Source of the DNA: Campylobacterota bacterium
GTDB taxonomy: Bacteria; Campylobacterota; Campylobacteria; Campylobacterales; JAJVLF01
Assembly (NCBI GenBank): GCA_029255845.1
Contig: JAJVLF010000015.1
Coordinates: forward strand, 1 to 45,567
Direction of reading: 5' to 3'
DNA length: 45,567 nucleotides
Both the position numbers and the translations under genes were made by a program. Below, one piece after another: positions 1,162 to 31,336 of this stretch (the first letter of the stretch is position 1; each line of letters begins with the position of its first letter). A model generated the notes under the pieces. It was not told the DNA's origin. It ran no database searches and saw only the letters and a list, made by a program, of their open reading frames with translations.

Positions 1162-1959
1162 TTAATTATTGTATGATATTGACTTTTTGTGAATTTTAGG
1201 AGTAGTTGCAAATATTTTTTTAAAGTTTCTATTAAAATGACTTTGGTCATAAAATCCATTGTCATATGCAATAGTTGTTAAGTTTGTTTGTTCAAATTTA
1301 CTTAATTGTTTTTTTGCCATATTGATTCTTTTGTTAATAATAAAATTTTGAGGTGTCATTCCAGTTTCTTTTTTAAATAGCCTTATTAAATATGACTTAT
1401 TGTATCCCAAATCATTGGCTATATCATTGATGGATATTTTTAAATTTATATTAATATCAATATAATGCTTTATTTGATTGCATAAATTACAAATTTTATT
1501 TTTTTCTAAATTATTATATGAATAACTTAGAAAAATATTCTTAATTATGTCTATTAATTGTTCAGTGTATTGATACTCATTATCCGCATTTAGTATGTCT
1601 TTACATAATTTTAATATTTTATTATTATTTACTTTTGATGTTGATAAGGGAATAAAATTACTTGAATTTAAAAATAATTCAGATTGAATTTTTTTACACC
1701 AATCTATGTCTAAATATATGGTATAGTAGCCAGTAGCATTAATATTTCTTGTTTGATGAGGTTGGTATGGATTGAAAACAGCAATTGAATTAGGAGATAA
1801 TACTGCATTATCATTTTTATGTCTTATATTTAAAGAGCCTTTTTCAATAATCCCAAAACTTAACATATAATGAAAATGCATTTTATAATCAGTGAATATA
1901 TGTTTAACATATTTTATTTCACCAAATATTTCATTTTCTTTTGTGTATAAAATTTTCAT
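1162..1959 (-). CDS. AraC family transcriptional regulator
   Basis: N-terminal cupin (HFH...H) and C-terminal double HTH (YLIRLFKKETGMTP; GFYDQSHFNRNFKK). Confidence 0.95.
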   Translation of the reverse strand: MKILYTKENEIFGEIKYVKHIFTDYKMHFHYMLSFGIIEKGSLNIRHKNDNAVLSPNSIAVFNPYQPHQTRNINATGYYTIYLDIDWCKKIQSELFLNSSNFIPLSTSKVNNNKILKLCKDILNADNEYQYTEQLIDIIKNIFLSYSYNNLEKNKICNLCNQIKHYIDININLKISINDIANDLGYNKSYLIRLFKKETGMTPQNFIINKRINMAKKQLSKFEQTNLTTIAYDNGFYDQSHFNRNFKKIFATTPKIHKKSISYNN

Positions 1960-2173
1960 AATTTTTTTATACCCCTTTAGTAACTTTAAGGTTTAGCAAC
2001 ATATTGTAACTATTATTATATTATTTTTCTCATCAAAAATAAACATAAATTGCAGATTAGGGGTTTACCATTTAATGCAAAATTTACTTAACTTATTCTT
2101 TACTATACTTACTTGCCCTAGTTATAAATCATTAGCTAATATGTTAAATTAATATGAGAAAATCCATAATAAC

Positions 2174-3778
2174 CTAATACATCTTCTCTTTAGCCTCTAT
2201 CCCCATCATAGACAACCCTATCTTAATACTATTAGCAACTATAATTGATACCTTTAAATAATCTTTCTCATTTTCATTATCTATAAACTTATTAGCATTA
2301 TAAAAGCTATGAAATAGGGATGATAATTCGTATAAATAATCTGTTAGTTTATTTGGTGCTTTTTGATTAAAAGAATTTTCTATTGTTTCTGAAAGCATTA
2401 AGGCGAAAAGTAATAGATTTGATGATTCTTGGCTTAGGTTTTGGAAATTGTGGTTTTCTATGTCTTTTTTGCTAAATTGGCTTTTTTCTAGCAGTGAATT
2501 AATTCTTGCGTGGGCATAGTTTATGTAAAAAATAGGGTTTGATGAATTTTGCTCTTTTAGTTTGGATATGTCAAATTCTAAATGGGTGTCGAATTTCTTA
2601 GTTAAGAAAATGAATTTTAAGGCATCATTTCCTATTTCTTCCCTGACTTCCTCCATTAAGATAAAATTACCTTTTCTTTTACTCATCTTGTATGGTTTGC
2701 CGTCTTTAAGTAATGCCACCATTTGAGAAAGTAATATTTCTAATTTTTCTTCATTAAAGCCTAAAAATTTGATGGCGGATTTCACTCTATTTATATATCC
2801 GTGATGATCAGCACCCCATATATTTATATATGTGTCATAGTCTCTTTCAAATTTGTTTTTATGATATAGTATATCTCCAGCTAGATATGTCGGCACTCCA
2901 TCTTCTCTCACTACTACTCTATCTTTTTCATCACTTGCTTTTGTTGTCTCTAGCCATAATTTGCCGTCTTTTTTGTAGCAATAGTCTTTTATTATTTTTT
3001 CCGTGTCGTCCCATTTAGCATATAGGGATTTTTCACTTACAAAATAATCAAAATGAATGTCTATTTTTGATAAGTCATTTTTAATTAAATCTAATACTTT
3101 GCTTTTTGCTATATCTGCTATTTTTTTTAAGTCTTTATTAATTATAATATTTTTATCTTGCTCGTAAATATCATTAGCTATATCAAGGATATAATCCCCT
3201 CTATAATAATCCTCAGGAAATTCTACTTCCCTAGATAAGATACTCTCACAAGCTCGTAGCCATACAGATAATCCAAGCAAATCCATTTGTTTTCCCGCAT
3301 CATTTACATAATACTCTGTATCTATTTCATAACCTAAAAAACTTCCACATTTTTGTATATAATACCCACCAATAGCACCTCTAGCATGACCTATATGTAA
3401 TGGTCCTGTTGGGTTGGCTGATATATATTCTAAAAGTATTTTTTTGTTTTTCTTCTCTGCTTGGAAGCCATTTTTTAAATAATCATCACTAATTTCATTT
3501 AAAAATTCTTGTTTTAGAAATATATTTACAAAACCAGAAACAGCATTAGCTGATTCAATAAAATCTAGTTTTGAAATTATATCTGCATACTCAGTAGCGA
3601 TATGGACGGGGGATTTTTTCATTTCTTTTGCTAAAGAAAAGCAGAAATTAGTCGCAAAATGACCAAATTCTGGTTTTTTAGGTTTTTGAAGGATGATTTT
3701 ATTAAAAACAATACCATCAATATCGTTTAGTTTTTCGCTCACCATATCGGCGACTATATTACTTAAATGATTAAGCAT
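2174..3778 (-). CDS. argS: Arginine--tRNA ligase
   Basis: SANPTGPLHIGH (HIGH), WGADHHGY, KMSKRKG, YAHARI and the C-terminal anticodon-binding domain. Confidence 0.99.
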   Translation of the reverse strand: MLNHLSNIVADMVSEKLNDIDGIVFNKIILQKPKKPEFGHFATNFCFSLAKEMKKSPVHIATEYADIISKLDFIESANAVSGFVNIFLKQEFLNEISDDYLKNGFQAEKKNKKILLEYISANPTGPLHIGHARGAIGGYYIQKCGSFLGYEIDTEYYVNDAGKQMDLLGLSVWLRACESILSREVEFPEDYYRGDYILDIANDIYEQDKNIIINKDLKKIADIAKSKVLDLIKNDLSKIDIHFDYFVSEKSLYAKWDDTEKIIKDYCYKKDGKLWLETTKASDEKDRVVVREDGVPTYLAGDILYHKNKFERDYDTYINIWGADHHGYINRVKSAIKFLGFNEEKLEILLSQMVALLKDGKPYKMSKRKGNFILMEEVREEIGNDALKFIFLTKKFDTHLEFDISKLKEQNSSNPIFYINYAHARINSLLEKSQFSKKDIENHNFQNLSQESSNLLLFALMLSETIENSFNQKAPNKLTDYLYELSSLFHSFYNANKFIDNENEKDYLKVSIIVANSIKIGLSMMGIEAKEKMY

Positions 3779-4320: not shown

Positions 4321-6489
4321 ATGATTAATTCCATTAAAATCAATAATATTGCAAGCTACAAGTCAGCAACATCGTTAAAAACAGAGAAAAAGATAAATTT
4401 ACTATATGGGCTTAATGGAACAGGAAAAACTACATTATCTAATTTTTTACAAGATAAAGATAAAGTAGAATTTAAAGATTGCAGTATTATAGGTGGAGAG
4501 TCATCTAAAATACTTGTATATAATCAAAAATTTATTAATGATAATTTTTATGTAAAAGATAATTTGAAAGGTATATTTACAATATCTGAATCTAATGGGG
4601 CAGCTGAAGAAAATATTAAAAATGCAAAAACTGAAATTGAAGAAATAGATAATCAGAAACGAATAAAAGAAGATAAATTAAAAAAAATAGATGGTAGTAT
4701 AGAGAAGAAACTATTAACAGCCACTAATGAAATATGGAAAATAAAAACTATCTTTAGTGGTGGAGATAGAATTTTAGATTATTGTTTAGAAGGCATAAAG
4801 AGCAGCAAATCTTTATTATTTAAACATATCAAATCATTAGAAAAATCATCAATAAAACCTGCTAAAACAGTAGATGAACTAAAAAAGGAAATTTCACAAA
4901 TTGAAGGAGATAAGGCTATTGAAATCCCGATTTTACCAAAAGTAGAATTAAGTGGATTATCTGAAATTGAAATTGACACTATTTTTAATGAAGTTATTGT
5001 TGGAAATAAAGACAGTACAGTTTCTAATTTAATTGATAAATTTGAAAATTCAGATTGGGTAAAACTTGGGGTAACTTATTTACCAACTGAAATTGCTGGA
5101 ACTGAAATTTGCCCATTTTGTCAACAAAAAACAATTAATATGGATTTGGCTAATGAGTTAAAAAATTATTTTGATAAAACATATGAAGATAAACTTAGTA
5201 GATTAAGGCAATTAAAAGATATGTACCTTAACATAAAAAATAATATTCCCAATATGGATACCTTTTTAACAAATGAGTTTTCAAAAGCTAAAAAAATAGA
5301 ACTTGAAAATTCACATACTAAATTAATTAATATTTTAAATAAAAATATTAATGCTATAGATAGTAAAATAAAACTGCCAAGCAGTACAATTAATTTTAAA
5401 GATTATACTCAAGAAATTAGCAATTTCAATGAACTTATAGAAAGTATCAATCATTTAATTATTGGACATAATGAAAAAATAAAAAATAAACAAGCTGTCA
5501 AGGACATTATAAAAAAAGAATTTTGGGAAATAATGAGATGGGAATATGATAGCTATATATTAAGTTATGAAAAAGATTTAAAAGATTTAGAAAAAGACAA
5601 ATCAAGACTAAAAGAATCAATTAAAAAATTACTTGATGATATAAAAGCACAAAATGACATCATAAAAAAAAATCAGGGAAAAACAGCACATATTGAAGAA
5701 GCAATAAGAGCAATAAATTATCAGTTGATTTTGCTTGGATTGCATGGATTTGAAATCAAACAACATGAAAATAATTTTTATAGAATAATTAGAGAAAATG
5801 AAGATGAATCGCAATTTAAGTCATTAAGTGAAGGCGAAAAAATGATAATAAGCTTTCTTTATTTTATTGAATTATGTAAAGGTAAAGAAGATAAAGATGA
5901 AACTATTTTAAGCAAGATTATTGTTATTGATGACCCAATATCAAGCTTATCTCATAATTATATTTTTAATATTGCACAATTGATAAAAAGTTATTTTTTT
6001 GATAATTCAGACTATTCTCAAGTGTTTGTATTAACACATAGTATGTATTTTTTTCATGAACTTTGTAAATTGAAAAAACCTAAAACTAGAAAACTATTTA
6101 GAATTATTAAAAAATCAGATAAATCATCTAGTTTTTTAGAAATGAAAGAAGATGAAATTTTAAATGACTATCAAGCTTATTGGAAAATTATTAAAGACTA
6201 TGAAAATGGTAATGCTCCTGATAATATTATGGCAAATGCGATGAGAAATATTTTAGAGCATTTTTTTGCTTTTGTCTATAATGAGAAAATGAAAGAAGCT
6301 ATAAAAACAATCGATTCAAATAAATATGGTGCATTTTTAAGATATGTTGATAGAGAGTCACATTCTGACCAAACAAACATATCCGACATTAAAGAAATTG
6401 ATATAAGACTTTTTAAGAATGCTTTTAAAAAGGTTTTTGAAGATACAAAAAATATAAAACATTACAATAAAATGATGGATTTAGAATGA
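4321..6489 (+). CDS. RloC-like AAA_13 ABC ATPase with zinc hook and C-terminal HEPN nuclease (wobble-nucleotide-excising tRNase family)
   Basis: Walker A GLNGTGKTT, coiled coil with CPFC zinc hook, signature LSEGEK, Walker B IIVIDDPISSL, H-loop LTH, C-terminal NAMRNILE...RYVDRESH (RxxxxxxH HEPN-type). Confidence 0.85.
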   Translation: MINSIKINNIASYKSATSLKTEKKINLLYGLNGTGKTTLSNFLQDKDKVEFKDCSIIGGESSKILVYNQKFINDNFYVKDNLKGIFTISESNGAAEENIKNAKTEIEEIDNQKRIKEDKLKKIDGSIEKKLLTATNEIWKIKTIFSGGDRILDYCLEGIKSSKSLLFKHIKSLEKSSIKPAKTVDELKKEISQIEGDKAIEIPILPKVELSGLSEIEIDTIFNEVIVGNKDSTVSNLIDKFENSDWVKLGVTYLPTEIAGTEICPFCQQKTINMDLANELKNYFDKTYEDKLSRLRQLKDMYLNIKNNIPNMDTFLTNEFSKAKKIELENSHTKLINILNKNINAIDSKIKLPSSTINFKDYTQEISNFNELIESINHLIIGHNEKIKNKQAVKDIIKKEFWEIMRWEYDSYILSYEKDLKDLEKDKSRLKESIKKLLDDIKAQNDIIKKNQGKTAHIEEAIRAINYQLILLGLHGFEIKQHENNFYRIIRENEDESQFKSLSEGEKMIISFLYFIELCKGKEDKDETILSKIIVIDDPISSLSHNYIFNIAQLIKSYFFDNSDYSQVFVLTHSMYFFHELCKLKKPKTRKLFRIIKKSDKSSSFLEMKEDEILNDYQAYWKIIKDYENGNAPDNIMANAMRNILEHFFAFVYNEKMKEAIKTIDSNKYGAFLRYVDRESHSDQTNISDIKEIDIRLFKNAFKKVFEDTKNIKHYNKMMDLE

Positions 6490-6535
6490 ATAAAATAGAA
6501 TTTTTACTTAATTATATAAAAATTAAAAACTAAGT

Positions 6536-7234
6536 ATGAGGCTTATAAAAAAAGATTTTGTAGATAAAAATGTTAAATCTATACTTGGATATCCACTGCC
6601 ATCAGGTAAAGCTTACTATATAGAAAATGATGTAGGTTTAATTGAATATGGGAGCGATTATTATATTAACAACAATAATTTTTCTAATGAAAAAAAAGAC
6701 ATTATAGATCTTACAAAAGGCCTACCTTCTAGCTTTAAATATAATACAACAGATAACAAGCAGTCTAATAATTTTAATAAACAATCTTTATTAAGTTCTA
6801 ATGAAAGAAATTATCAAAAAGCTTTACTTTATTTAACATTTAGCGAAGAAAAGATGAAGCCATTTGTTGGATATAAAAAATATAATAATAAGTTTTTATC
6901 AAGCATATATTCTTTTTATTTAAAAGAAGACTTTTTGTCTCTAAAACAAATAGAGACTATACTTAAAATAGAAAAAAATAGTCATAAAGATATTATTAAT
7001 AAATATGGTTATCATAGTATTTCATTGAAAAATTTAGAAACCTGTTATGCTTACGAATACAAAATAAAAAGAGCCATTGATAAATTAGAGGATAAGAAGT
7101 TTATGCAAGAAATACTGAAAACTTTATATCAATATTTATACCTAACTGATAAACAAATTGAAGCGATTAGAAAATGGTTTCAGTATTTACCAAAAGATTT
7201 ACAAGAAGCCAAATTAAGGTCTTTTGATGTATAA
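6536..7234 (+). CDS. Hypothetical protein (232 aa) in the defence island
   Basis: Long ORF co-oriented between the RloC-like gene and rhuM; no recognisable motif. Confidence 0.65.
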   Translation: MRLIKKDFVDKNVKSILGYPLPSGKAYYIENDVGLIEYGSDYYINNNNFSNEKKDIIDLTKGLPSSFKYNTTDNKQSNNFNKQSLLSSNERNYQKALLYLTFSEEKMKPFVGYKKYNNKFLSSIYSFYLKEDFLSLKQIETILKIEKNSHKDIINKYGYHSISLKNLETCYAYEYKIKRAIDKLEDKKFMQEILKTLYQYLYLTDKQIEAIRKWFQYLPKDLQEAKLRSFDV

Positions 7235-7368
7235 AAATAAGCAAAATTTAAAAGTATTAAAAATACCACAAAGGCAAGTAATAACTAAGCTAGATATGAA
7301 AATAGTAAATTTCACTAATAAAAATATAGAGCAAACATTTAAGCACTCAAATAAGGAGCATGTAGATA

Positions 7369-8364
7369 ATGAGCGATATTGCAATATATGAAAATACTAA
7401 TGGAGACATAAAAGTAGATGTTACTTTTGAAGATGATAGTATTTGGCTTAATCAATCACAGATTTGTGAAGTGTTTGCTAAATCAAAATCTACTATAAGT
7501 GAGCATATAAGTAATATATTTGATGAAGAGGAATTAGAGCAATATTTAACTGTTCGGAAATTCCGAACAGTTCAAATGGAAGGAAATAGAGAAGTAGCAA
7601 GAGATGTTGATGTTTATAATCTTGATATGATAATCGCTATTGGCTTTAGAGTAAAATCTACTCAAGGGACAAAATTTAGACAATGGGCTACAAAAAAATT
7701 AAATGAATATATCACAAAAGGTTTTATGCTAGATGATGATAGATTTAAAAGTGGTAATTCTATGGAGTATTTTGATGAGTTGCAAGATAGGCTTAGAGAT
7801 ATACGGCTTTCAGAGCGATTTTTTTATCAAAAAATAAAAGATATTTACACTACAAGCTATGATTATAATCCTAAAAACATAAAAACAATAGAATTTTTTA
7901 AGATTGTTCAAAATAAATTATTATGGGCTATATCAGAGCAGACAGCCTCACAATTGGCTTATGAGAGGATAGACATAAATCTACCAAACCTTGGAATGAA
8001 CTCACTTGATAAAAAAGGTAAAAATATCACAAAAGCAGATGTAAGAATAGGTAAAAATTATTTAGATGAAAATGAGATAAAGCAATTAGCTCTTATAGTA
8101 GAGCAATATCTTGCATTTGCTGAGTCTATGGCTACACAAAAAACTAAAATGTTTATGGATGATTGGATTAAAAGACTTGATAGTATTATAAGTCTTAATG
8201 GAAAAGAGATATTAAATAGTGCTGGTAAAATTAGCCATAGTTCGATGATGGAAAAAACTTCAAAAATTTATGAAGAATATAAAAATCAAAAAAAACAAGA
8301 GGAAAAAAAGCAGAGCTTGAAAGAGCTTGAAGATGATATAAAAAATTTAGGGGTTTTAAAATGA
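7369..8364 (+). CDS. rhuM: RhuM family protein
   Basis: WLNQSQI, TVRKFRTVQ.EGNREV.R, YNLDMIIAIGFRVKS, FRQWAT, GFMLDDDRFK, IRLSERFFYQKI; AAGGAG RBS. Confidence 0.93.
   Translation: MSDIAIYENTNGDIKVDVTFEDDSIWLNQSQICEVFAKSKSTISEHISNIFDEEELEQYLTVRKFRTVQMEGNREVARDVDVYNLDMIIAIGFRVKSTQGTKFRQWATKKLNEYITKGFMLDDDRFKSGNSMEYFDELQDRLRDIRLSERFFYQKIKDIYTTSYDYNPKNIKTIEFFKIVQNKLLWAISEQTASQLAYERIDINLPNLGMNSLDKKGKNITKADVRIGKNYLDENEIKQLALIVEQYLAFAESMATQKTKMFMDDWIKRLDSIISLNGKEILNSAGKISHSSMMEKTSKIYEEYKNQKKQEEKKQSLKELEDDIKNLGVLK
7548..7572. repeat. Perfect intragenic palindrome in rhuM
   Basis: AACTGTTCGGAA-A-TTCCGAACAGTT (12-bp arms). Confidence 0.9.
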
Positions 8365-9528: not shown

Positions 9529-10932
9529 TTACCTTTTATTTACTTTTAGTTTTATGGCTATTATGAAATGGTATATAAAATACAAAGATATTATCCTTGA
9601 AATAAATGTTTGCACATAATAATCTATATGGAGATTATACTCTAAAATAAGCTCAAATGGATTAATCAAATGTATAAATACATCTACCCCTATATCCACA
9701 GGATAAAAAGCAGTAAATATGCTAGCACTTAATATAAGCCATACTAGTGGAAGTATATAGCTTTGCGAATAATGAGAAGTAAATTTATATGCTTTTAAAA
9801 CTATCCAATCTGTAATCTTACTGTAATCTTTTTTGCTTATTAAGGTTTTTTCTATTTTTTCTAATTCTATTGCATAGAATTTATTAATATCGCTTATATT
9901 ATTATTTTTCATTGCACAATTTTTAATAATTCTTGCTGTTTCTTTATTGGCTATATGAGATGAATCTAGGGGGATACTTTTCATAGCTTTAAATCCATAA
10001 AGACTATTAAATGTAGCATCTTTAAATATGCTTTTGTGAAAACTAAGGCTATAAAATGAGCTTTCTACAAAAGAGCCTCTTATAAATAAGACATAAGAAA
10101 AATCTGCTTCTTTTTTAAAAACACTAGAAGAAAATGACACATCTTCAAATTTGCTATTTTTAAAACTCGCCTTATCTGAAAATACAGCATTATTATAATT
10201 ACTAGTCCCAGAAAAGTGAATATCCCAAAAAAAGGCTTCTTGATTAAATTTAGTAGATGTAAATTCTGCCTTACCTTCACATATCGCACCCCAAAAATCT
10301 ACCTTTACTTTAAAGCTACTCGCCCAAAAATATAAATCCTGATTACATATCATCCTTCTAAAAGAAGCCTGAGCATAAAAAATTGAATTTCTAAAAGATG
10401 CTTGTTTTTTAAAATGTGTTCGATTAAAGTCTGACATTTTATGAAATTTACTAAATTGAAAATAAGAGTCTTCATTAAAAGTAGAGTTTTTAAAAGAGAC
10501 CTCTTCATAAAATTCTGATTTAATAAAGTTTGCTTCGCCTTTGAATTTGGCATTATCAAAAATAGCTTTTTCTTTAAATATGATATTAGAAAAATTAGCT
10601 TCCCCATAAAAGGTAGCTTCTATAAAAGATACATCATGCTCAAACATATTTTCATCAATTTTAAAAAAGAAATTATAATCTTTTAAATAGCGACCTTTTG
10701 AAAAATGTATTTCTTCAAATTTAGGAAATTCAACATAATCTAAATTTATATAAGCACTATGTTTTGAATCATAAGCGATAATTTTTCTTACTGCTTTCCA
10801 AAATAAAGTAATATTGCCATAGCTTTTAGCCCAATCTTGCTCACCATCTCTAATCATAAACCAATCTTGCTTAGAAGAATACAAAATATCTGTTTCTTCA
10901 ACTGAAAGTATTTTATTTACATCATCTCTCAT
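9529..10932 (-). CDS. Pentapeptide repeat protein with C-terminal membrane segments
   Basis: Long run of 11-aa A.F..S.F repeats (Pentapeptide_3 type), then S..SQS..LP..W and TM helices. Confidence 0.85.
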   Translation of the reverse strand: MRDDVNKILSVEETDILYSSKQDWFMIRDGEQDWAKSYGNITLFWKAVRKIIAYDSKHSAYINLDYVEFPKFEEIHFSKGRYLKDYNFFFKIDENMFEHDVSFIEATFYGEANFSNIIFKEKAIFDNAKFKGEANFIKSEFYEEVSFKNSTFNEDSYFQFSKFHKMSDFNRTHFKKQASFRNSIFYAQASFRRMICNQDLYFWASSFKVKVDFWGAICEGKAEFTSTKFNQEAFFWDIHFSGTSNYNNAVFSDKASFKNSKFEDVSFSSSVFKKEADFSYVLFIRGSFVESSFYSLSFHKSIFKDATFNSLYGFKAMKSIPLDSSHIANKETARIIKNCAMKNNNISDINKFYAIELEKIEKTLISKKDYSKITDWIVLKAYKFTSHYSQSYILPLVWLILSASIFTAFYPVDIGVDVFIHLINPFELILEYNLHIDYYVQTFISRIISLYFIYHFIIAIKLKVNKR

Positions 10933-13738: not shown

Positions 13739-14194
13739 TTAAATTTTATCTAATAAGCCCTTGTTTCTTAAAATAATAATAATAGCAAAAAATATCCCCA
13801 TATTAATAAATATATCCGCCATATTAAATACAGCAAAATCAAAATAACATCTCCAAGCTATGAAATCTACAACTCCAATTCTATGAAATCTATCTATAAT
13901 GTTGCCTACTCCTCCAGCAAATATGAAGACTAGAGGTAGCTTAAAGTATATTTTTAATGCTTCATTTTTCCATACATAAATAGCTAAAAATATTAATACA
14001 GACATTTGTATGTATTTTAAATATTCTCCTAAAAACTCAAACATTGAGAATGCTATGCCTGTGTTATATACTAAATAAAAATAAATACAACCTATGTTAA
14101 AAGTTAATCCTTGAACAAAAATCCATTTTGTGTATTGGTCTATTAGGACTAAAAGGACGAAGATTGCTATATATATATAGTTTTTTTTAGCCAT
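13739..14194 (-). CDS. lspA: Lipoprotein signal peptidase
   Basis: DQYTK, NTGIAFS, GGVGNIIDR, VVDFI, FAVFNMAD. Confidence 0.98.
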   Translation of the reverse strand: MAKKNYIYIAIFVLLVLIDQYTKWIFVQGLTFNIGCIYFYLVYNTGIAFSMFEFLGEYLKYIQMSVLIFLAIYVWKNEALKIYFKLPLVFIFAGGVGNIIDRFHRIGVVDFIAWRCYFDFAVFNMADIFINMGIFFAIIIILRNKGLLDKI

Positions 14195-15527
14195 TTAATT
14201 TTTCTTTAAAAAATTCTTTTGCTTGTTCTAGTGATTTTATTAACACGGTTTCATTTTTGCTTTCTAAGAATACTCTTAAAAGTTTCTCTGTGCCTGAATA
14301 TCTTATAAGATGTCTCACTTTCGCTTTGTCTAATGAGGAGATTAAATCATCATATCCATTAAGTGATTTTAGAGGTATTTTTTTCTTTATTGGGATATTT
14401 AGGGTTTTGCTAGGGTATAATTTGAAGTTTCTTAGAGATTCACTTGCTGTTTTTTTGCTTTTTACTATGAGTGCCATTATTTGTAATGCGGATAAAATGC
14501 CATCTCCTGTTTTAGCAAATTCATTAAAGATTATATGACCACTTTCTTCACCGCCAAAATGGACATCTTTTTTTCTCATTAAGGCTGTTACTTTTTTATC
14601 TCCTATATCACTTTTGTAATTATTGATATTATTTTTCTTGCAAAATTCTTCTAAGGCACCATTGCTCATCTCTGTGCTTACTATGGCATTATTATTTAGC
14701 TTATTTTCACTTTTTAGGTATTTGGCTATAGAGGCTAGAGTGTTATCTCCATCTATCTTTTCTCCATTTTCATCTACTACAACTAATCTATCCGCATCTC
14801 CATCAAATGCAAAGCCTATATCGGCTCTTGATTCTACTACTTTTTTCGCTAAATCACTTATGTTTAATGCTCCACAATTATCATTTATATTATATCCATT
14901 TGGGTTATTGTGGATTGTAATCACTTCAGCGTCAAGCTCATCAAAAATAGTGGGAGCTACTTTATATGATGCTCCATTGGCTGTATCAAGCACTATCCTA
15001 TATCCTGTTAATGTATATTTTGAAGGAAATGAATTTTTTATTTGGACTATATATCTTCCTATTACATCATCTATTCTTTTTGAAGAGCCTATATTTTTAT
15101 TTGTTTGCATATATTTTGTAAAATCTTCATTAATATATATTTCTTCTATTTTCTTTTCTGCTTCATCTCTAAGCTTTCCACCATCATTATTGAAAAATTT
15201 AATGCCATTATCTTCATAAGGATTATGGCTAGCACTTATCATAATTCCCGCATCACATCTCATACTTTGAGTTAAAAATGCTACAGCAGGAGAGGGCATA
15301 GGACCAATTTGTATTACATTATATCCTATACTTGTGAGACCTGAAACTATGGCATTTTCTATCATATAGCCACTTTTTCTGGTGTCTTTTCCTATTAAGA
15401 TTTTATTGGTTTTAGAAATGCTCTTAAAGTATATCCCCATAGATAGAGCTACCTTTAAAGAAGTAAAAACATCTATCGTTTCTCCCGCCTTTCCTCTCAC
15501 ACCATCTGTGCCAAATAAATTGCCCAT
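14187..15527 (-). CDS. glmM: Phosphoglucosamine mutase
   Basis: LFGTDGVRG, MISASHNP, FDGDADR, GGEESGH, RYSGTE. Confidence 0.98.
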   Translation of the reverse strand: MGNLFGTDGVRGKAGETIDVFTSLKVALSMGIYFKSISKTNKILIGKDTRKSGYMIENAIVSGLTSIGYNVIQIGPMPSPAVAFLTQSMRCDAGIMISASHNPYEDNGIKFFNNDGGKLRDEAEKKIEEIYINEDFTKYMQTNKNIGSSKRIDDVIGRYIVQIKNSFPSKYTLTGYRIVLDTANGASYKVAPTIFDELDAEVITIHNNPNGYNINDNCGALNISDLAKKVVESRADIGFAFDGDADRLVVVDENGEKIDGDNTLASIAKYLKSENKLNNNAIVSTEMSNGALEEFCKKNNINNYKSDIGDKKVTALMRKKDVHFGGEESGHIIFNEFAKTGDGILSALQIMALIVKSKKTASESLRNFKLYPSKTLNIPIKKKIPLKSLNGYDDLISSLDKAKVRHLIRYSGTEKLLRVFLESKNETVLIKSLEQAKEFFKEKLNG

Positions 15528-15558
15528 TGTTTTCCTTGTTTTTGCCCGTATTATATAA

Positions 15559-16602
15559 TTATTGTGTTATATAAAGAAGAGTTCTATGGCTTAAAGCATT
15601 TTCTTTTGCATGAAGAAAGTCTGTGGCTGTTTCTATTTTAATAGCAAATACATTCACTATGATTACCTTTTTCCCTACTGGAGGTTGCTCGAATTCTTTT
15701 TCATAAAAATCATTATCTAAAACCATAGCAGGTGCTGTTAATGTAGCACTAGAAATAGATGATGTGTTTTCATCCATAGGGATATTTATAGCCCTATATA
15801 ACACATTACTATATTTATCGTCTGAAGTATTTACTATTTCTACTGCGAGAGATCTCGTATGTAAAGGTAGATTAGCCCACCTTATATGAGGGAATCCTCC
15901 TGTAAATTCTGTGCCATCTTTAAAGTTTTTAGAATACAAAGCAAAAGATGGATAAATATTATCTCCTTTTGGCAAACTAGGGTCATTTGATGGTGTAGGA
16001 ATATCATAAGCATTTTTTATTATATCTATCGTATATCCATCATCACTTATTGTTACTTCATCAAAAACCTGACTAGCTCCAGGGAATCCATCAAAAGCAG
16101 ATGCATTATGGATTGGTCTCCATTTTCCTCCAGATGTGAATTGCCATATCCTCATACCTGTATCTTTACCTCTTCCTGATGCTAAAAATGGATATGAATT
16201 ACTTTCCCAAAAATACCAAACAATCTTAAATGTTTTATTTTTTAAGGTTTCTAAGAAATAATCAATAGCTATATTAGTGCTAATAGATTTACTTCCAAAA
16301 GTAATTTTATCTCCTGTTAAAGAAAAACTTATATTAGTAAAGTTCTTATTTGCTTTAACAAAACCATCAAAAGATGGTGCATTATGTATTGGTTTCCATT
16401 TTTTTTGTGCTGTAAAATTCCACACTCTGATATTATTAGTTTTTCGACCATTAGCAAGGTAATATAATGTATTATTACCTTCTTGAACTTCCCAAAAGTA
16501 CCAACCTATTTTATGAACCTTATTAACTAATGCTTGAGATGTAACATCTAAAGAAAAAGAAAAAGTTATTAAAGTAAATAAAAAAATTATAATTTTAAAC
16601 AT
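15559..16602 (-). CDS. Secreted protein with two Trp-rich repeats and a degenerate PEBP (YbhB/YbcL-like) domain
   Basis: Signal peptide; 2x WYFW...WxFT...KWxPIHNA..FDGF; C-terminal PHIRWANLP..TRSLAV..INIP..NDF..PP..VFAI. Confidence 0.75.
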   Translation of the reverse strand: MFKIIIFLFTLITFSFSLDVTSQALVNKVHKIGWYFWEVQEGNNTLYYLANGRKTNNIRVWNFTAQKKWKPIHNAPSFDGFVKANKNFTNISFSLTGDKITFGSKSISTNIAIDYFLETLKNKTFKIVWYFWESNSYPFLASGRGKDTGMRIWQFTSGGKWRPIHNASAFDGFPGASQVFDEVTISDDGYTIDIIKNAYDIPTPSNDPSLPKGDNIYPSFALYSKNFKDGTEFTGGFPHIRWANLPLHTRSLAVEIVNTSDDKYSNVLYRAINIPMDENTSSISSATLTAPAMVLDNDFYEKEFEQPPVGKKVIIVNVFAIKIETATDFLHAKENALSHRTLLYITQ

Positions 16603-17694
16603 TTATTTTCCTGTGTATTTAACTGTTATTGAAGATTTATAAATAGCATTATTATAGTCATTAGTCCCACTTATTTGGGAGGTAGCAAAAGCATAAACAG
16701 TAAATTTGTAGTTATGAGTTTCTCCAGCAGGAGGAAAAGGAGCTAAATAAGATGGAGTGCCAAAATCATTAGGTATATTTCTACTATTTTCATAATTAGA
16801 CAAAGGCCCTTTAGGAAGAGATGTAATACTCTTAGGTATATTTATAATATTCCAATGATATTTATCTACATCTAAATCTTTTAAAGATATTGCATAACTT
16901 TTGATAATATCTTTATCTTTAATATCACTCTGGACATCCCACGAAAAAGCAGGAGATAATGAAGAATATGCTTCGCTTAAAAACTCTCCTTCTTGCACAT
17001 CATTTGATTTTAATGTAATCCCTTTGGGTAAATCTGGTTTATTTTCTTTTGGTTGATTTCCATCTGATGTATCATTTGTATCTAATATAGATTTACCTAT
17101 CGTAAGCACCCCTGAAGATGCTTCAAATGATACATTTTCTAATGTGTTGTCAGCTTTATCAAAACCATCAAAAGCACCAGCATTATGGATTGGTTGCCAT
17201 TTTTTATCAGGAGTAAAATACCATATTGAAATTCCTTTACTTTTACTCTCACTAAATAAAAAAGCATCTCCAGTATTAACCCAAAAATACCAACCTATAT
17301 TAAAATCTTTACTTTCTAATAAGACAGCTTTTTGATTAGCTGTATCATCTGTGGGATTGTTTGTGATAGCACCAAAAGTGATAGCTTCTTTTATTTTATC
17401 TAGGCTTATATCATCAAAAACATTTTCTGCTTTAGGGAAGCCATCAAATGCATTTGCACTATGAATGGGTTGCCATTTTTTATCAAGAGTGAAATGCCAA
17501 ACTGCAAAACCACCACCTTCCTTGCTTTGAGTGAGATATGGGACATTTTTTGAGCTACTATCTTTAGCTACCCAAAATAGATATTGCATAGTAGGAGTTG
17601 AATTAGATATTTTTTCTACTAACTCATTAAAAGTTTTTGCATATAAATTATTAAAAATAAATGTATGCAAAAAAGCAATAAAAATCCATTTCAC
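16603..17694 (-). CDS. Secreted protein with two Trp-rich repeats and an intact PEBP (YbhB/YbcL) domain
   Basis: GTG start, signal peptide, the same two repeats; C-terminal SP.FSW, KSYAI, D.D..YHW.I.NIP, NDFG..SY.APFPP.GETHNY.FTVYA. Confidence 0.82.
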   Translation of the reverse strand: MKWIFIAFLHTFIFNNLYAKTFNELVEKISNSTPTMQYLFWVAKDSSSKNVPYLTQSKEGGGFAVWHFTLDKKWQPIHSANAFDGFPKAENVFDDISLDKIKEAITFGAITNNPTDDTANQKAVLLESKDFNIGWYFWVNTGDAFLFSESKSKGISIWYFTPDKKWQPIHNAGAFDGFDKADNTLENVSFEASSGVLTIGKSILDTNDTSDGNQPKENKPDLPKGITLKSNDVQEGEFLSEAYSSLSPAFSWDVQSDIKDKDIIKSYAISLKDLDVDKYHWNIINIPKSITSLPKGPLSNYENSRNIPNDFGTPSYLAPFPPAGETHNYKFTVYAFATSQISGTNDYNNAIYKSSITVKYTGK

Positions 17695-17706
17695 ATTAAA
17701 CCTTTA

Positions 17707-18495
17707 CTATCTCTTTAATTGATTAACAGTCTGAAGCATTTCATCAGATGTGATGATGGCTTTAGAGTTTGCCTCATAAGCTCTTTGCCCTGCTATTAAA
17801 TCGGTCATTTCATTTACTAGCTTTACATTTGAAAGCTCAATAAACCCTTGTCTAGTTTGTCCTAATCCATTAATCCCTGCAATCCCTGCAATAGGAGCCC
17901 CACTAGATGCAGATTCTTGAAACATAGTTCCACCCATAGCATGTAGTCCTGCTTGATTTACAAAACTAGTAAGCAAAATCTGACCTACTTGTGCTGGAGC
18001 TCTATTATTGCCTTCAAGCACACTAACCATACCATCTTCACTAATATTAACATCTGTTACATTAGCAGGTATAGTTATTTGTGGGTTAAGCAAATATCCC
18101 TCAGATGTGGTAATATTACCATCTCCATTAATCTTAAAATTACCATTTTTAGTATAAGCTTCACTTCCATCAGGAAGAATAACAGAAAAAAATCCCTCTC
18201 CTGTAATAGCAATATCTAAATCATTTCCAGTTTCTTTTAAGCTACCAATTTCAAATATCTTAGCCGTAGAAGATAGCTTACTACCTAAACCAATTTGTAT
18301 CCCTGTAGGAGATATAGTTGTAGCAGAAGTAGAAGTTCCTGCATACTTCATAGTCTGATATATTAAATCTGTAAATTCTGCTCTGTTTTTCTTAAAACCA
18401 GAAGTATTTGCATTGGCGATATTATTGGAAATAGTATCAATATTTTTTTGCTGGGAAATCATCCCTGTGGCTGCCGAATAAAGAGATCGTATCAT
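17707..18495 (-). CDS. flgG: Flagellar basal-body rod protein FlgG
   Basis: MIRSLYSAATGM, SNNIANANTSGFKK, ELSNV.LV.EM..LI.GQRAYEANSK. Confidence 0.98.
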   Translation of the reverse strand: MIRSLYSAATGMISQQKNIDTISNNIANANTSGFKKNRAEFTDLIYQTMKYAGTSTSATTISPTGIQIGLGSKLSSTAKIFEIGSLKETGNDLDIAITGEGFFSVILPDGSEAYTKNGNFKINGDGNITTSEGYLLNPQITIPANVTDVNISEDGMVSVLEGNNRAPAQVGQILLTSFVNQAGLHAMGGTMFQESASSGAPIAGIAGINGLGQTRQGFIELSNVKLVNEMTDLIAGQRAYEANSKAIITSDEMLQTVNQLKR

Positions 18496-18509
18496 TTATT
18501 TACCTTTTA

Positions 18510-19304
18510 TTAATTTTTTACAACAGCTATTTTATTAATAGCTTCATTATTCATATCATCCATTTGTGTGGTCATAGCTTTTTGATTAAACTCTATTGAG
18601 CGATTTACGATTATTAAATTTGTCATAGCTATCACAGGGTTTACATTACTTCCCTCTAAAAATCCTTGCTGTAAGGCATTTGGATTATTTACAAGTGAAT
18701 ATATACCATTTTTTAATGGTTTATAAATCCCATCAGATTTTTTTTCTAAATATTTTAAATTATTAACTTCATATATTTGTATTTTATTTACAATCTCATT
18801 ACCTTGATATATATTTCCATCTGAGTCTATATGTGGAGATTGTCCAGTTAATATGATAGGTTTATCATTGGCACCCATTATAGGATTACCATTACTTTTA
18901 TTAACAAGCCTACTTTGAGAATCTATTGCTAAATTACCTTTTTTGCTTAAAAGCATATTGCCTTTCGCATCTTTTGTAGAAAAAAATAAATTATCTTTAT
19001 TTAAAACCAAATCTAGCTTATTATCAGTTTTTCTAAGAGTCCCCATAGAAAAATCAGTATATTCTTCAACTACTTGAGGAACCCTGTCCATAGTCCTATG
19101 TAAAAATTTAGCCCCTTCTTTAGTGTGATTACCTAAAGGAAGCTCTTTTCTTTTTTCATCATGGATTCTAATATAATCCCCAACAATAAGATTATCTTTT
19201 TTGAAAGAAGTAGTATTAACATTAGCGAGATTATTGGTAACCACATCAAGCCTATTAAAGCTAGTAACCATACCCCCTACTGCATTATAATAACCATTTT
19301 GCAT
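18510..19304 (-). CDS. flgF: Flagellar basal-body rod protein FlgF (FlgG2 type)
   Basis: MQNGYYNAVGGMVT, NNLANVNT..FKKD, LEGSNVNPV; lies upstream of flgG. Confidence 0.92.
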   Translation of the reverse strand: MQNGYYNAVGGMVTSFNRLDVVTNNLANVNTTSFKKDNLIVGDYIRIHDEKRKELPLGNHTKEGAKFLHRTMDRVPQVVEEYTDFSMGTLRKTDNKLDLVLNKDNLFFSTKDAKGNMLLSKKGNLAIDSQSRLVNKSNGNPIMGANDKPIILTGQSPHIDSDGNIYQGNEIVNKIQIYEVNNLKYLEKKSDGIYKPLKNGIYSLVNNPNALQQGFLEGSNVNPVIAMTNLIIVNRSIEFNQKAMTTQMDDMNNEAINKIAVVKN

Positions 19305-19338: not shown

Positions 19339-19356
19339 AAGCAATTAATATTCCAA
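19339..19356 (-). promoter_or_regulatory. Sigma54 (-24/-12) promoter of flgF-flgG
   Basis: TTGGAATATTAATTGCTT = GG-N10-GC, 35 bp upstream of the flgF ATG; rod genes are RpoN-dependent in Campylobacterota. Confidence 0.85.
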
Positions 19357-19382: not shown

Positions 19383-19459
19383 GACCTTATCGTCTAGCTG
19401 GCCAAGGACATTAGAGTTTCATTCTAAAAACGGAGGTTCAAATCCTTCTAGGGTCGCCA
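19383..19459 (+). tRNA. tRNA-Glu (anticodon TTC), atypical anticodon arm
   Basis: Acceptor GACCTTA/TAGGGTC, D arm GTCT..GGAC, anticodon arm TTAGA-GTTTCAT-TCTAA (anticodon 19418-19420), T arm GGAGG-TTCAAAT-CCTTC, encoded CCA. Confidence 0.9.
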
Positions 19460-19947: not shown

Positions 19948-20679
19948 TTAGAGATTTTCTTGGGCTTTTAGCTCTTCATTTTTTACATCTTCAACTTGCT
20001 GTAAATAAAAATCAAAATTATCTGGTGCATTAGAATTGACTTTATCTATTAAAGTTGCGAAATTATTTCCACTTAGGACTATATATCTCGTATCATTAAG
20101 CTCAAATACTATTAATTTTGTTTTTAAGTCAATTTGTCGGACAAATATTAATTTATAACCTTTTAAGTTATTTAGCTTTAGTGATTCATTTGTTTTTCTT
20201 TTTATCATGAAATAAAATATTAATAGTATAGATATAATTGAGAGCATTAAAATATAAGAGCCTATACCGATAGTTGGTGCTGGATTGCTCCTTAAAGGCT
20301 CACTACTAGCAAATAAAGAACCTGCTATATTTTTTCTAATAGATATTTTTATATTTTTACCATCAAAGCTTTTTTCTACTTCTATTAAAAAATTTTTTGC
20401 TTTTAATATTTTTATTTGTGAGTGATTTTTATAATATGCAAATTCTATAGCAGGGATTATACTATTTTGGATATTTATTATTTTATCTTTTATGGATAAT
20501 TTATCATCAATTCTAATAATGATGTCTTCATTAATTGCACTTTTAGAGATATTTCCATCAAAGGATTTATTTAAATATAATGATAAGGTTATCTTATTAA
20601 GATTTTTTATTAACTTATAAGAAGTAATTTGAGAATATAAAGAAGAAGCTAAAATAAAAATAAAAAATAAAAATTTCAT
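19948..20679 (-). CDS. fliO: Flagellar biogenesis protein FliO-like (Campylobacterota type with periplasmic domain)
   Basis: Signal peptide, periplasmic domain, one TM helix, cytoplasmic RQIDLKTKLIVFE...YIVL; directly after fliN. Confidence 0.7.
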   Translation of the reverse strand: MKFLFFIFILASSLYSQITSYKLIKNLNKITLSLYLNKSFDGNISKSAINEDIIIRIDDKLSIKDKIINIQNSIIPAIEFAYYKNHSQIKILKAKNFLIEVEKSFDGKNIKISIRKNIAGSLFASSEPLRSNPAPTIGIGSYILMLSIISILLIFYFMIKRKTNESLKLNNLKGYKLIFVRQIDLKTKLIVFELNDTRYIVLSGNNFATLIDKVNSNAPDNFDFYLQQVEDVKNEELKAQENL

Positions 20680-21009
20680 TTAATCATAATTACTAACAAC
20701 ATTTTTAGAATCTAAGATTTCATTAACCCTTATCGCTAGATTTTTTTCATAAACCATAACATCACCTTTGCCAAACATTTTATTATTTATATATAAAGCT
20801 ACACTTTCTCCTGCGGCTTTATTTAAATCAATAACATATTCTTTTTTCATTTTAATAAATTCAAGCAATGGTAAAACGGTTTGCCCTAAATCAGCATGAA
20901 TACTGATTTCCATATCAAGCATACTTCCATAATCTACTTTTGTCGATGATATGGTTGATTCTAGCTCACCTATAATTTTTTTTAAATTTTCAATATTAAC
21001 ATCATCCAT
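20680..21009 (-). CDS. fliN: Flagellar motor switch protein FliN
   Basis: SpoA domain: ADLG.T, IDLNKAAGESV, GKGDVMVYEKNLAIRVNEI. Confidence 0.93.
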   Translation of the reverse strand: MDDVNIENLKKIIGELESTISSTKVDYGSMLDMEISIHADLGQTVLPLLEFIKMKKEYVIDLNKAAGESVALYINNKMFGKGDVMVYEKNLAIRVNEILDSKNVVSNYD

Positions 21010-21022
21010 CTCAATCCTTTAA

Positions 21023-21433
21023 TTAATATGCGAGCAAAATATAAGTTTCTTCAACTTTAAAGTATTTTTTTATGTAATTATCCATATTTTTGGGTTGTAT
21101 TATCTCTGGCACCTTCAATTTGGCATCTTTATTTGAATCTGATAAAGCCCATTTTAATTTCCCTACAATTAAATTTGATAATTCTTTGATAAAATCCTCT
21201 AGTTCTTCATCTTCTAAGTCTTCTTTAAGCCCAGAATATATGCCACTAAGAAAAACTAATCCTTCTTTTGACATTCCTATAATTATTTCTTTATTTTTAT
21301 TATTATCTATAATATTTATTTTAGCATAAAGCAATGAGCTTTTATTTTCTGGCGGTTTAGCTATGGCTTGAATGGTGATATCAAAAGCTTCTTGAAAAAC
21401 TTTATATATGGATTGCAATAAATAATGTGTCAT
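21023..21433 (-). CDS. cheX: CheX-like chemotaxis phosphatase
   Basis: DFIKELSNLIVG (ExxN motif), L.VPEI; upstream of fliN. Confidence 0.78.
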   Translation of the reverse strand: MTHYLLQSIYKVFQEAFDITIQAIAKPPENKSSLLYAKINIIDNNKNKEIIIGMSKEGLVFLSGIYSGLKEDLEDEELEDFIKELSNLIVGKLKWALSDSNKDAKLKVPEIIQPKNMDNYIKKYFKVEETYILLAY

Positions 21434-30016: not shown

Positions 30017-31336
30017 ATGAGTATCAATGAAGATGTAGCAAGTAGAATTAAAGCATTAGAAAATGATTGGAAGACCAACCCAAGATGGGTAGATGTTAAA
30101 AGAACATATAGTGCAAAAGATGTTGTGAAATTACAAGGCTCTATTAAAATAGAACATACCTTAGCGACAAGAGGGGCTAATAGATTATGGGACCTTATAA
30201 GAGGTGGTGCTTCTAAAAAAGGATATGTTAATTGTCTTGGAGCTCTTACAGGTGGTCAAGCAATGCAACAAGTAAAGGCTGGTATTGAAGCTATTTATTT
30301 ATCAGGATGGCAAATAGCAGCAGATGGAAATACATCTAAGACTATGTATCCAGATCAATCTTTATATGCTTATGATTCTGTTCCTACTATGGTGCAGAGA
30401 ATTAATAATTCACTTAAAAGAGCTGATGAAATTCAGCATACAAAGGGAATATATAAAGGAGATAAAGGATTTATAGATTTTTTTGCTCCCATTGTAGCTG
30501 ATGCTGAAGCTGGTTTTGGCGGAGTTTTAAATTCTTATGAATTAACAAAAAATATGATAGAAGCAGGAGCTGCTGGTATTCATTTAGAAGATCAATTAGC
30601 TGCTGTAAAAAAATGTGGTCATATGGGTGGAAAAGTTTTAGTTCCAACACAAGAAGCGATACAAAAGCTAATCTCTGCTAGACTAGCATCAGATGTCATG
30701 GGAGTTCCTACTTTTGTATTAGCTAGAACAGATGCCGAAGCTGCCAATTTATTAACTAGCGATGTTGATGAATATGATAAGCCTTTTTTAACAGGAAAAA
30801 GAACATCTGAAGGTTTTTATGAAGTAAAAGCTGGAAAAGAACAAGCAATAGCAAGAGGTTTAGCTTATGCTCCTTATGCTGATTTAGTATGGTGTGAAAC
30901 TGCTACTCCTGATTTAGGTTTTGCTAAAGAATTTGCAGATGAGCTTAAAAAACAAAACCCTAATCAATTACTAGCATATAATTGTTCTCCATCATTTAAT
31001 TGGAAGAAAAATTTAGATGATGCAACAATTGCAAAGTTTCAAGATAAATTAAGTGAATATGGATTTAAGTATCAGTTTGTTACTTTAGCTGGTATTCATA
31101 GTATGTGGTATAATATGTTTGATTTAGCTAATGAATATGCTAATGGAGAAGGTATGAAGCATTATGTAAATAAAGTTCAAGAAGAAGAATTTAAAGCCGT
31201 ATCAAAAGGATATACTTTTGCTTCTCATCAGCAAGAAGTTGGAGCTGGATATTTTGATGATGTTACAACAATTATACAAGGTGAAAAATCTTCTGTAACT
31301 GCTCTTACAGGCTCCACCGAAGAAGATCAATTCTAA
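30017..31336 (+). CDS. aceA: Isocitrate lyase
   Basis: [21 protein letters not shown], catalytic [26 protein letters not shown]. Confidence 0.99.

Follow-up and report, generated by a model that had tools for sequence, protein, structure and literature searches.

The DNA analysed here, referred to as the window, comprises the 45,567 nucleotides of contig JAJVLF010000015.1 of a Campylobacterota bacterium (assembly GCA_029255845.1). On its minus strand, directly behind the rod genes flgF and flgG of the flagellum, lie two genes, here called A and B, which encode exported paralogous proteins that join a duplicated Trp-rich repeat to a PEBP domain. Gene A (16603-17694; 363 amino acids; GTG start) specifies a signal peptide, two such repeats, a linker and a PEBP domain in which the pocket motifs are intact, and gene B (15559-16602; 347 amino acids) a signal peptide, two repeats, a linker and a remodelled PEBP-like domain. 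The main result of this study is that the repeat represents an uncatalogued, structurally isolated and portable domain family of which A and B are one conserved use, within a rod-gene unit in this lineage. The general kind, modular exported proteins with targeting domains, is already known; the domain family itself is uncatalogued.

A and B share 30% identity over 334 residues (BLASTP, E 3e-33), and a second, out-of-register alignment reaches E 2e-13. Judged from the sequences, both N-termini are hydrophobic and signal-peptide-like and contain no lipobox cysteine. In A, the signal peptide was delimited by eye to residues 1-20 (MKWIFIAFLHTFIFNNLYA/K; 17635-17694, minus strand); homologues have an MK... 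start. A hidden Markov model (HMM) built from the four repeat copies of A and B retrieves each of them with an independent E value (i-E) of the order of 1e-39 to 1e-42, which bears out the two repeats per protein proposed in an earlier interpretation of the letters alone (the sequence-only reading). On the minus strand, the repeats of A occupy positions 17356-17634 (i-E 1.1e-41; predicted local distance difference test score, pLDDT, ~92-97) and 17080-17343 (i-E 1.5e-38), and those of B positions 16279-16554 (i-E 1e-42) and 16003-16269 (i-E 1.6e-39). In A they are followed by a Pro/Asp/Asn-rich linker (residues 205-246; 16957-17082, minus strand), modelled as disordered with a pLDDT <50 at residues 205-224 and 232-246, and by a PEBP domain of the YbhB/YbcL type (16606-16956, minus strand) assigned by PF01161, Foldseek and its pocket motifs. 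The C-terminal PEBP-like domain of B (15562-15906, minus strand) was recognized by alignment to A and to B orthologues, its TIGR00481 score being below cut-off. The order of signal peptide, proline-containing linker and C-terminal PEBP domain, likewise proposed before, is supported by the sequence, the disorder in the model and PF01161. Two details of the earlier description did not stand: the repeat is real but measures about 88-92 rather than ~80 amino acids, and it is not limited to four copies, at least six further proteins of the genome carrying it.

By sequence criteria, the Trp-rich repeat is a real and previously uncatalogued domain. An alignment of 121 units yielded the signature KW-x-P-[IVL]-[HY]-N-A-x-A-F-D-G-[FY], in which W49 is conserved to 98%, P51 to 95%, N54 to 94% and G60 to 80%. 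The module has no match in Pfam or NCBIfam, and a search of PDB sequences with the repeat profile gave as best hit the WD40 protein Lis1 with an E value of 0.1. No description of the repeat, or of a flagellar PEBP, was found in searches of the literature on bacterial PEBP/YbhB/YbcL proteins and on PEBPs in connection with Campylobacter, the periplasm and flagella. The tandem of A (residues 21-206) was modelled by AlphaFold2 from a 17-sequence alignment with a mean pLDDT of 94.7 and a predicted template modelling score (pTM) of 0.85. Each modelled unit consists of an N-terminal helix, a four-stranded meander, an extended segment bearing the conserved motif, and a hairpin. Foldseek returned no PDB match to this model at E<=1e-3 (best 2.3e-2, template modelling score (TM) 0.17) and none at that threshold among the BFVD viral structures; the ESM Atlas gave no usable match. 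Of 48161 chains compared in a wide VIA search, 292 reached Z>=2 and none Z>=5, with a best Z of 4.0, and a second VIA look at 981 Foldseek chains likewise held none at Z>=5. According to the VIA guidance, models without a clear match typically have a best Z of 7-8, so that the module, at 4.0, is unusually isolated in structure. This isolation means that the model has no clear solved neighbour; a missing match is no proof of a new fold. The impression that the repeat was unrecognised has thus held at the level of both sequence and predicted structure.

Several candidate likenesses were set aside. The best VIA matches (Z 4.0, 68-69 residues, root-mean-square deviation (rmsd) 3.1-3.3) were a trypanosome microtubule-inner protein and a DL-peptidase, and do not, in our judgement, represent a shared fold. 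PliC/PhiA lysozyme inhibitors, PH/FERM-F3 domains, lipocalin-like lipoproteins and GID4 scored Z 2.6-3.6 against the module model; a PliC-like inhibitor and a PH-like fold were dropped because such scores are at background level.

The module extends well beyond A and B. When the genome of origin (G000; 2.2 Mb, 265 contigs) was searched with the four-copy HMM, seven open reading frames (ORFs) proved to have the tandem at their N-terminus and one more to have a single copy, which amounts to at least eight exported proteins. Besides A and B, the tandem is joined to Spondin_N (contig C203, 409 amino acids), to Peptidase_S8 (C238, 776 amino acids), to He_PIG and F5/8 type C domains (C43, 399-3575, minus strand, 1059 amino acids) and to a region with no recognised partner domain (C219, 498 amino acids); one protein consists of the module only (C124, 234 amino acids), and the single repeat precedes a cyclophilin domain (Pro_isomerase; C30, 277 amino acids). 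The C43 protein (locus L005) also has a His-rich, HExxH-like stretch near its C-terminus and may be a large exported metalloprotease or adhesin. Among 11 ORFs tested that flank the paralogues, seven had a Pfam match (lipid A acyltransferase, diacylglycerol kinase, EamA, MoCF, pentapeptide and DUF234 families being represented), and none of these seven belongs to a flagellar family.

In the wider search, a profile of 14 repeats run against 1.84 billion representatives retrieved 100 proteins at E<=1e-3, 62 of them at E<=1e-10 and 32 at E<=1e-30. Partner domains were sought with Pfam in 88 of these proteins; the other 12 were four very short, two already known and the six weakest matches. The commonest partners were PBP and Peptidase_S8 (six proteins each), followed by Laminin_G_3 (five), Pro_isomerase (three), and Spond_N and M23 (two each); SNase, Trypsin, CBM_5_12, DUF2202, Rv2525c-like, leishmanolysin (M8), RHS and F5/8C were seen once each. 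Many of the 88 had no other domain, and module-only exported proteins of ~200 amino acids are frequent among the homologues. A near-complete unit was present in 82 representatives, 43 with two units and 39 with one, and lay at the N-terminus in 56, at the C-terminus in 21 and internally in five.

Judged by these counts, the domain is rare even among relatives. It occurs in three of 40 other genomes of the same order, and among 400 genomes sampled evenly across the order the fusion of module and PEBP is found in G000 only; a further 78 genomes matched, nearly all over the PEBP part alone and with ORFs of ~180 amino acids. Since the module is promiscuous across at least eight proteins of the genome and some 80 clusters, it is not an invention specific to flagella or to PEBPs, and the suggestion that it might be is weakened by its presence on proteases, a nuclease, a cyclophilin, Spondin_N and LamG proteins. 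The domain family thereby defined is uncatalogued; it has a clear signature and ~80 representatives of clusters, and its structure, predicted with confidence, has no clear solved neighbour. It behaves as a portable module, found on exported proteases, one nuclease, a peptidyl-prolyl isomerase, adhesion-type domains and PEBPs, and is a target for curation, structure determination and ligand screening.

We favour, with middling confidence, a reading in which the repeat is a portable module for binding or targeting that would recognise, probably, a glycan or a ligand of the cell envelope and would deliver a pair of PEBPs. This is suggested by several traits in combination: the domain is small, rich in aromatic residues and beta structure, and often duplicated in tandem; it occurs at either end of proteins as well as alone, and it carries a near-invariant polar-aromatic motif. 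Such a pattern is typical of carbohydrate-binding modules (CBMs) and wall anchors. A ligand-binding repeat, as had been proposed, remains a plausible view of the sequence. The module would be used much as CBMs and SLH/LysM-type anchors are, these also being small, rich in beta structure and aromatic residues, arranged in tandem, located at either end of exported enzymes, or occurring alone. Unlike them, it is extremely rare (~100 clusters in 1.84 billion), and no sequence or structural match to them was found, although it may be a distant relative. A partial precedent is provided by actinobacterial YbhB homologues, for which C-terminal fusions to carbohydrate-related modules are reported in PMC8793217.

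Alternatively, the tandem domain may not bind a ligand at all and instead serve as a recognition domain for export or surface display, or as an oligomerisation element that builds propeller-like rings. Its position directly behind the signal peptide in 56 of the 82 representatives would suit the export route. However, placement at the C-terminus in 21 of the 82 and the many module-only proteins fit poorly with a positional sorting tag; placement at either end suits a binding module rather than a position-dependent sorting signal. A propeller-like assembly is suggested by the meander of each repeat, whose first four strands superpose on single beta-propeller blades (WD40 Lis1, LGI1 EPTP, GH43, PLL and fucose lectins) over ~40 residues with an rmsd of 1.2-3.3 and a Z of 2.2-3.1, the sole recurrent local structural likeness of the module model. 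Weak profile matches to WD40 proteins, which cover profile positions ~22-50, point in the same direction. Yet blade-level likeness at Z ~3 is common background, and the monomeric tandem is already predicted to be compact, at the confident pTM given above. The WD40 cut-offs of Pfam were not reached (best PF24807, 12.6 bits vs 200, E 0.084, on B). Several of the weak profile matches in multiple stretches are ordinary WD40 proteins; two of the 88 proteins carry a true module followed by WD40. Although the repeat shares the blade-like meander with the blades of WD40 and RSL/PLL-type fucose lectin propellers, it differs from propellers in that only two units occur per protein and each has in addition an N-terminal helix, an extra extended segment and a hairpin. 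A sorting or ring-building function is, in our estimate, quite improbable.

The cargo of the module in A is a PEBP domain whose assignment rests on several lines of evidence. Protein A scores 61.1 bits with PF01161 (PBP; cut-off 24) over residues 244-342, lies below the subfamily cut-off of TIGR00481 (48 bits vs 57.75) and matches E. coli YbhB with an E value of 2.5e-7 (phmmer). The motifs D..D, HW and PP.GETH.Y, which we take to line the PEBP pocket, are all kept (kDlDv..yHW and fPPaGETHnYkF in A; dPDa..wHW and aPPkGETHrYiF in YbhB). In the full-length model of A, the PEBP part has a pLDDT of ~75-85 and adopts the PEBP fold, as judged by Foldseek matches to 4beg (Rv2140c), 1vi3, 1fjj (YbhB) and 1fux (YbcL) with E values of 3e-8 to 3e-7; with 3n08 and 2evv added, the range is 3e-8 to 7.5e-5 at a target TM of 0.52-0.62. 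The C-terminal domain of A is thus alike to the YbhB/YbcL proteins (PF01161; 1fjj/1vi3, 1fux, 4beg) in sequence, fold and pocket motifs, and like YbcL the protein bears an export signal. Unlike members of the YbhB family, it places its PEBP domain behind a tandem of a new domain, and A and B form a conserved tandem gene pair. Bacterial YbhB homologues are described in PMC8793217 as mostly stand-alone and rarely fused.

The corresponding domain of B is more divergent. At E<=0.1, B has no match to the Pfam PBP family, and with TIGR00481 it scores 20.8 bits (E 2.7e-4), which is below the cut-off of 57.75. It departs from YbhB and YbcL not only in these scores but also in lacking the pocket histidines: LY or HY stands in place of HW, and the G..H.Y stretch has given way to a non-conserved segment in all 11 B-type sequences. 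The retention of the pocket motifs in A and the loss of HW and G..H.Y from B, both noted in the sequence-only reading, are confirmed by alignments with YbhB and with B orthologues, respectively. Despite the sub-cut-off scores, a PEBP-like nature of this part of B is still supported by sequence comparison: the BLASTP alignment with A runs through the domain, the PHxxW motif is kept in B-type sequences, PF01161 is precomputed on the B orthologue P0113, and language-model features of the domain score 0.92/0.91 to PBP clusters.

The loss of the motifs does not make B a simply inactive partner, as had been supposed. P238, H239, W242, E255, A332, K333 and H339 are invariant across the 11 B-type sequences, and in the closest relative B is 85% identical in the module and 72% in the C-terminal domain, compared with 73% and 70%, respectively, for A. 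By these sequence measures, B is under conservation rather than decaying, and exceeds A in degree of conservation. Since orthologues of A and orthologues of B form two distinct series, the duplication must be old and both copies have been kept. As to the A/B heterodimer suggested in the sequence-only reading, a predicted complex of mature A (residues 21-363) with mature B (residues 18-347) gave scores of 0.01 and 0.00, the mark being 0.32; these values speak neither for nor against binding. The exported pair with one intact and one remodelled pocket, encoded in a rod-gene operon, provides a new context for bacterial PEBPs, whose biochemical role is unsettled.

Two related proteins differ in the N-terminal part. 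P0006, a metagenomic A-type variant of 267 amino acids, has a single Trp-rich repeat before its PEBP domain. The closest PEBP domain from another family of the order (36% identity; L036:1162-1932, plus strand, genome G001) belongs to an exported protein with a different N-terminal domain of ~85 amino acids; its gene is flanked by a two-component system on one side and by a solute-binding protein gene on the other. Because this PEBP carries a different N-terminal domain, exported PEBPs with swapped N-terminal modules may recur.

Taken as a binding and targeting module, the tandem domain would act as follows. A and B would be paralogues of long standing, conserved as a pair and exported by the Sec route, and each would consist of the tandem module, a flexible linker and a PEBP domain of the YbhB/YbcL type. 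The module would be portable and non-catalytic, mostly placed straight after the signal peptide of unrelated exported cargo, and would bind, via its conserved aromatic and polar motif, a shared target outside the cytoplasm that is probably a glycan or a cell-envelope polymer, thereby localising any protein fused to it. The cargo brought to this target would be, in A, a PEBP domain whose anion/ligand pocket is intact and, in B, a domain derived from a PEBP in which another, strongly conserved surface has taken the place of the pocket. The pair is probably made together with the rod, as it sits in the flgF-flgG unit behind a putative sigma54-type promoter (see below); nothing else connects it to the motor. 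Several points weigh against this proposal. The searches turned up no characterised CBM or lectin that resembles the module; its structural matches are weak throughout (Z<=4.0), and in the model the conserved Trp, His, Asn and Asp residues may be either exposed or core-forming. A and B may stay in the periplasm or leave the cell, the genome containing three ORFs with secretin domains. Finally, a general targeting module does not explain the linkage of flgG, A and B inferred on five metagenome contigs, or the contigs from RNA libraries that bridge these genes, both of which are considered below.

The frequency of proteases among the module-bearing proteins raises the possibility that the PEBP domains are inhibitors or regulators of exported proteases, that the module co-localises inhibitor and protease, and that A and B control the module-bearing S8 proteases and others. 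S8 proteases and PEBPs are, with six proteins each among the 88, the commonest partners of the module, and the C238 S8 protease contains a PEBP-like stretch right behind its module (hhalign probability 89%, E 2.1e-6, 72 columns). This match is, however, limited to the N-terminal half of the PEBP domain, A and B are genomically unlinked to any protease, and we know of no bacterial PEBP acting as a protease inhibitor, which counts against such a role. The middle region of the C219 protein, a second candidate, gave no match to the A family (hhalign probability 1.6%), and a PEBP-like domain is not claimed for it. According to PMC8793217, the yeast PEBP Tfs1 inhibits carboxypeptidase Y in vitro. 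On balance, we regard control of proteases by A and B as very unlikely and retain the view of a binding or targeting module.

The relation of A and B to the flagellum starts from the layout of the gene run, all of which lies on the minus strand. It opens with a flgF-like proximal rod gene (18510-19304, 264 amino acids) whose product has Flg_bbr_C and Flg_bb_rod domains and scores 135 bits with TIGR02490, below the cut-off of 178.5, and continues with the distal rod gene flgG (17707-18495, 262 amino acids; TIGR02488, 348.9 bits vs a cut-off of 252.75). A and B are followed by glmM (14187-15527; phosphoglucosamine mutase type, PGM_PMM domains I-IV) and by the signal peptidase II gene lspA (13739-14194; PF01252, 92.9 bits), which overlaps the end of glmM by 8 nucleotides. 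The gaps along the run measure 14 nucleotides between flgF and flgG, 12 between flgG and A, 0 between A and B (TAA followed by ATG) and 31 between B and glmM, in agreement with the spacing of 12 and 0 nucleotides given previously. An AGG-type ribosome site precedes A and another precedes B. The junctions from flgG through A and B to glmM contain no terminator-like site, the two minus-strand hits falling within B itself; in the scan, terminator-like sites were as frequent as in shuffled sequences (3 vs 3.1 expected), and the same applied to generic sigma70 promoter-like sites (38 vs 37.4 expected).

A sigma54-type -24/-12 element, TTGGAA-N6-TTGCTT (TTGGAATATTAATTGCTT; 19339-19356, minus strand), with GG-N10-GC spacing, is located 35 nucleotides upstream of the flgF ATG. 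It is the sole exact match to this sigma54 consensus in the window, and an rpoN gene is encoded in the genome. The looser pattern TGG-N9-TGC is not enriched in the window (13 vs 10.2). Layout and sole exact match agree with the earlier placement of the pair in the flgF-flgG run behind a sigma54-type element, which may well act as the promoter of the run. A further GG-N10-GC element, TGGGGCTCCTATTGC (17888-17902, minus strand), lies inside flgG, ~195 nucleotides upstream of the A start, and is either an internal RpoN-type start for A and B or a chance match. A tRNA-Glu(UUC) gene is present on the opposite strand (19383-19459, plus strand), 27 nucleotides beyond the sigma54-type element.

These features suggest an explanation in which A and B are lineage-specific periplasmic accessories of the flagellar basal body, that is, rod, disk or scaffold components; their Trp-rich module would serve as an anchor to peptidoglycan or another motor ring, and B would have lost its pocket on turning structural. 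In addition to the short gaps with a ribosome site at the flgG-A junction, the lack of an intervening terminator-like site, and the single sigma54-type element in a genome with rpoN, assembled RNA-library contigs bridge the genes. One from run X7 (15373-18804) spans the run from the 5' part of glmM through B, A and flgG to the 3' part of flgF, and two from run X8 cover 16128-17436 and, across the A/flgG junction, 17567-18584. X7 and X8 stem from one sample, and such contigs show neither strand nor a single transcript; DNA carry-over is possible. The depth is flat at about 4-14 apart from the tRNA-Glu region, where it reaches 61-110 in X8, compared with 3-14 over the genes in that run. From the raw-read RNA runs X22 and X23, of which about six hundredths each were sampled, no reads were obtained, which is no test of expression.

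A second line of evidence comes from metagenomes. For five of the ten closest FlgG homologues (80-95% identity), the longest contig has the same length and source as a contig carrying a homologue of A or B (1918, 30652, 5171, 5020 and 5235 nucleotides). The linkage is inferred from these identical sizes and sources and not from gene order, with one qualification: on the 1918-nucleotide contig, whose FlgG is 95% identical, the complete flgG gene and the complete gene for P0006 (267 amino acids) leave no room between them and must therefore be adjacent. By these sizes, true orthologues of the pair would lie near flagellar genes, and synteny with flgG in relatives is suggested for the five metagenome contigs. 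The other five close FlgG homologues are on contigs of 1232-3052 nucleotides with no A or B match, and no FlgG match shares the contig size of the remoter A- or B-like proteins (5432, 5961 and 7051 nucleotides). At none of 29 other PEBP loci of the order is flgF, flgG, glmM or lspA found within 1.5 kb; at least 25 of 29 relatives keep flgF-flgG, but what follows flgG differs between them, and none of A, B and glmM is found in that place. A search for loci with an A/B alignment returned only two loci on genome contigs and two on metagenome contigs, all of which encode other module proteins and none an orthologue of A or B; no flgF, flgG, glmM or lspA was present within 6 kb of these four.

A role in the motor has precedents. 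According to PMC12222027, PflC of C. jejuni is an HtrA-family protein without catalytic triad that has been co-opted as a motor disk, and the atrophied ancestral site of B would parallel that of PflC relative to HtrA; the word PEBP does not occur in that article. A fitness-database entry cited in PMC8793217 reports reduced motility of an E. coli ybcL mutant. As with PflA/PflB, FlgP and PflC/PflD, A and B are exported and encoded with flagellar genes. Unlike these proteins, to which they are not homologous, A and B share their module with non-flagellar cargo. At least six more exported proteins encoded in the genome bear the module, their cargo being enzymatic and their gene neighbours non-flagellar; the gene run extends into glmM and lspA, and close relatives may keep a gene order without a functional link. 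The flagellar link is real but thin. Because the precedent of PflC derived from HtrA exists, we keep a motor-accessory function as an unlikely alternative to a general binding module. In its most specific form, flgG-A-B would encode a new lineage-specific periplasmic basal-body component of an uncultured cold-seep family of Campylobacterales, with a heteromeric PEBP-derived scaffold (A providing the pocket, B the structural part) held at the wall or basal disk by a new-fold tandem, which would also fasten proteases and other cargo to the same envelope polymer; this version we consider doubtful. If the flagellar link proved functional, A and B would represent a new kind of co-opted periplasmic protein in the diverse motors of the Campylobacterota.

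Further features of the window concern neighbouring genes. Upstream of the run, a second flagellar group on the minus strand (19948-21433) comprises a CheX-like gene (21023-21433), fliN (20680-21009) and an ORF of 243 amino acids (19948-20679) that has no Pfam family and a hydrophobic segment and may be an unrecognised flagellar gene. A stretch of low GC content (0.23; 4321-8364, plus strand) encodes an AAA_13 ATPase of 722 amino acids, a family-less ORF of 232 amino acids and a RhuM-family protein and resembles a small mobile or defence-type island. An AAA_15/AAA_21 ATPase gene followed, with overlapping stop and start, by a gene for a DUF3226 protein (37449-39109, plus strand) may form a defence-like pair. 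Pentapeptide_3 proteins are encoded in the window (9529-10932, minus strand) and beside the module-Spondin_N paralogue on contig C203 (L001:3133-3996, minus strand). A glyoxylate/glycolate set consists of genes for isocitrate lyase, glycerate kinase, malate synthase G and a glycolate-oxidase-like FAD/Fe-S protein (30017-31336 and 36189-37283, plus strand; 39514-44479, minus strand). The stretch is present in 17 public sequencing runs from six studies, 12 of which contain at least half of its words, and the runs are labelled as cold-seep metagenomes and one coded organism.

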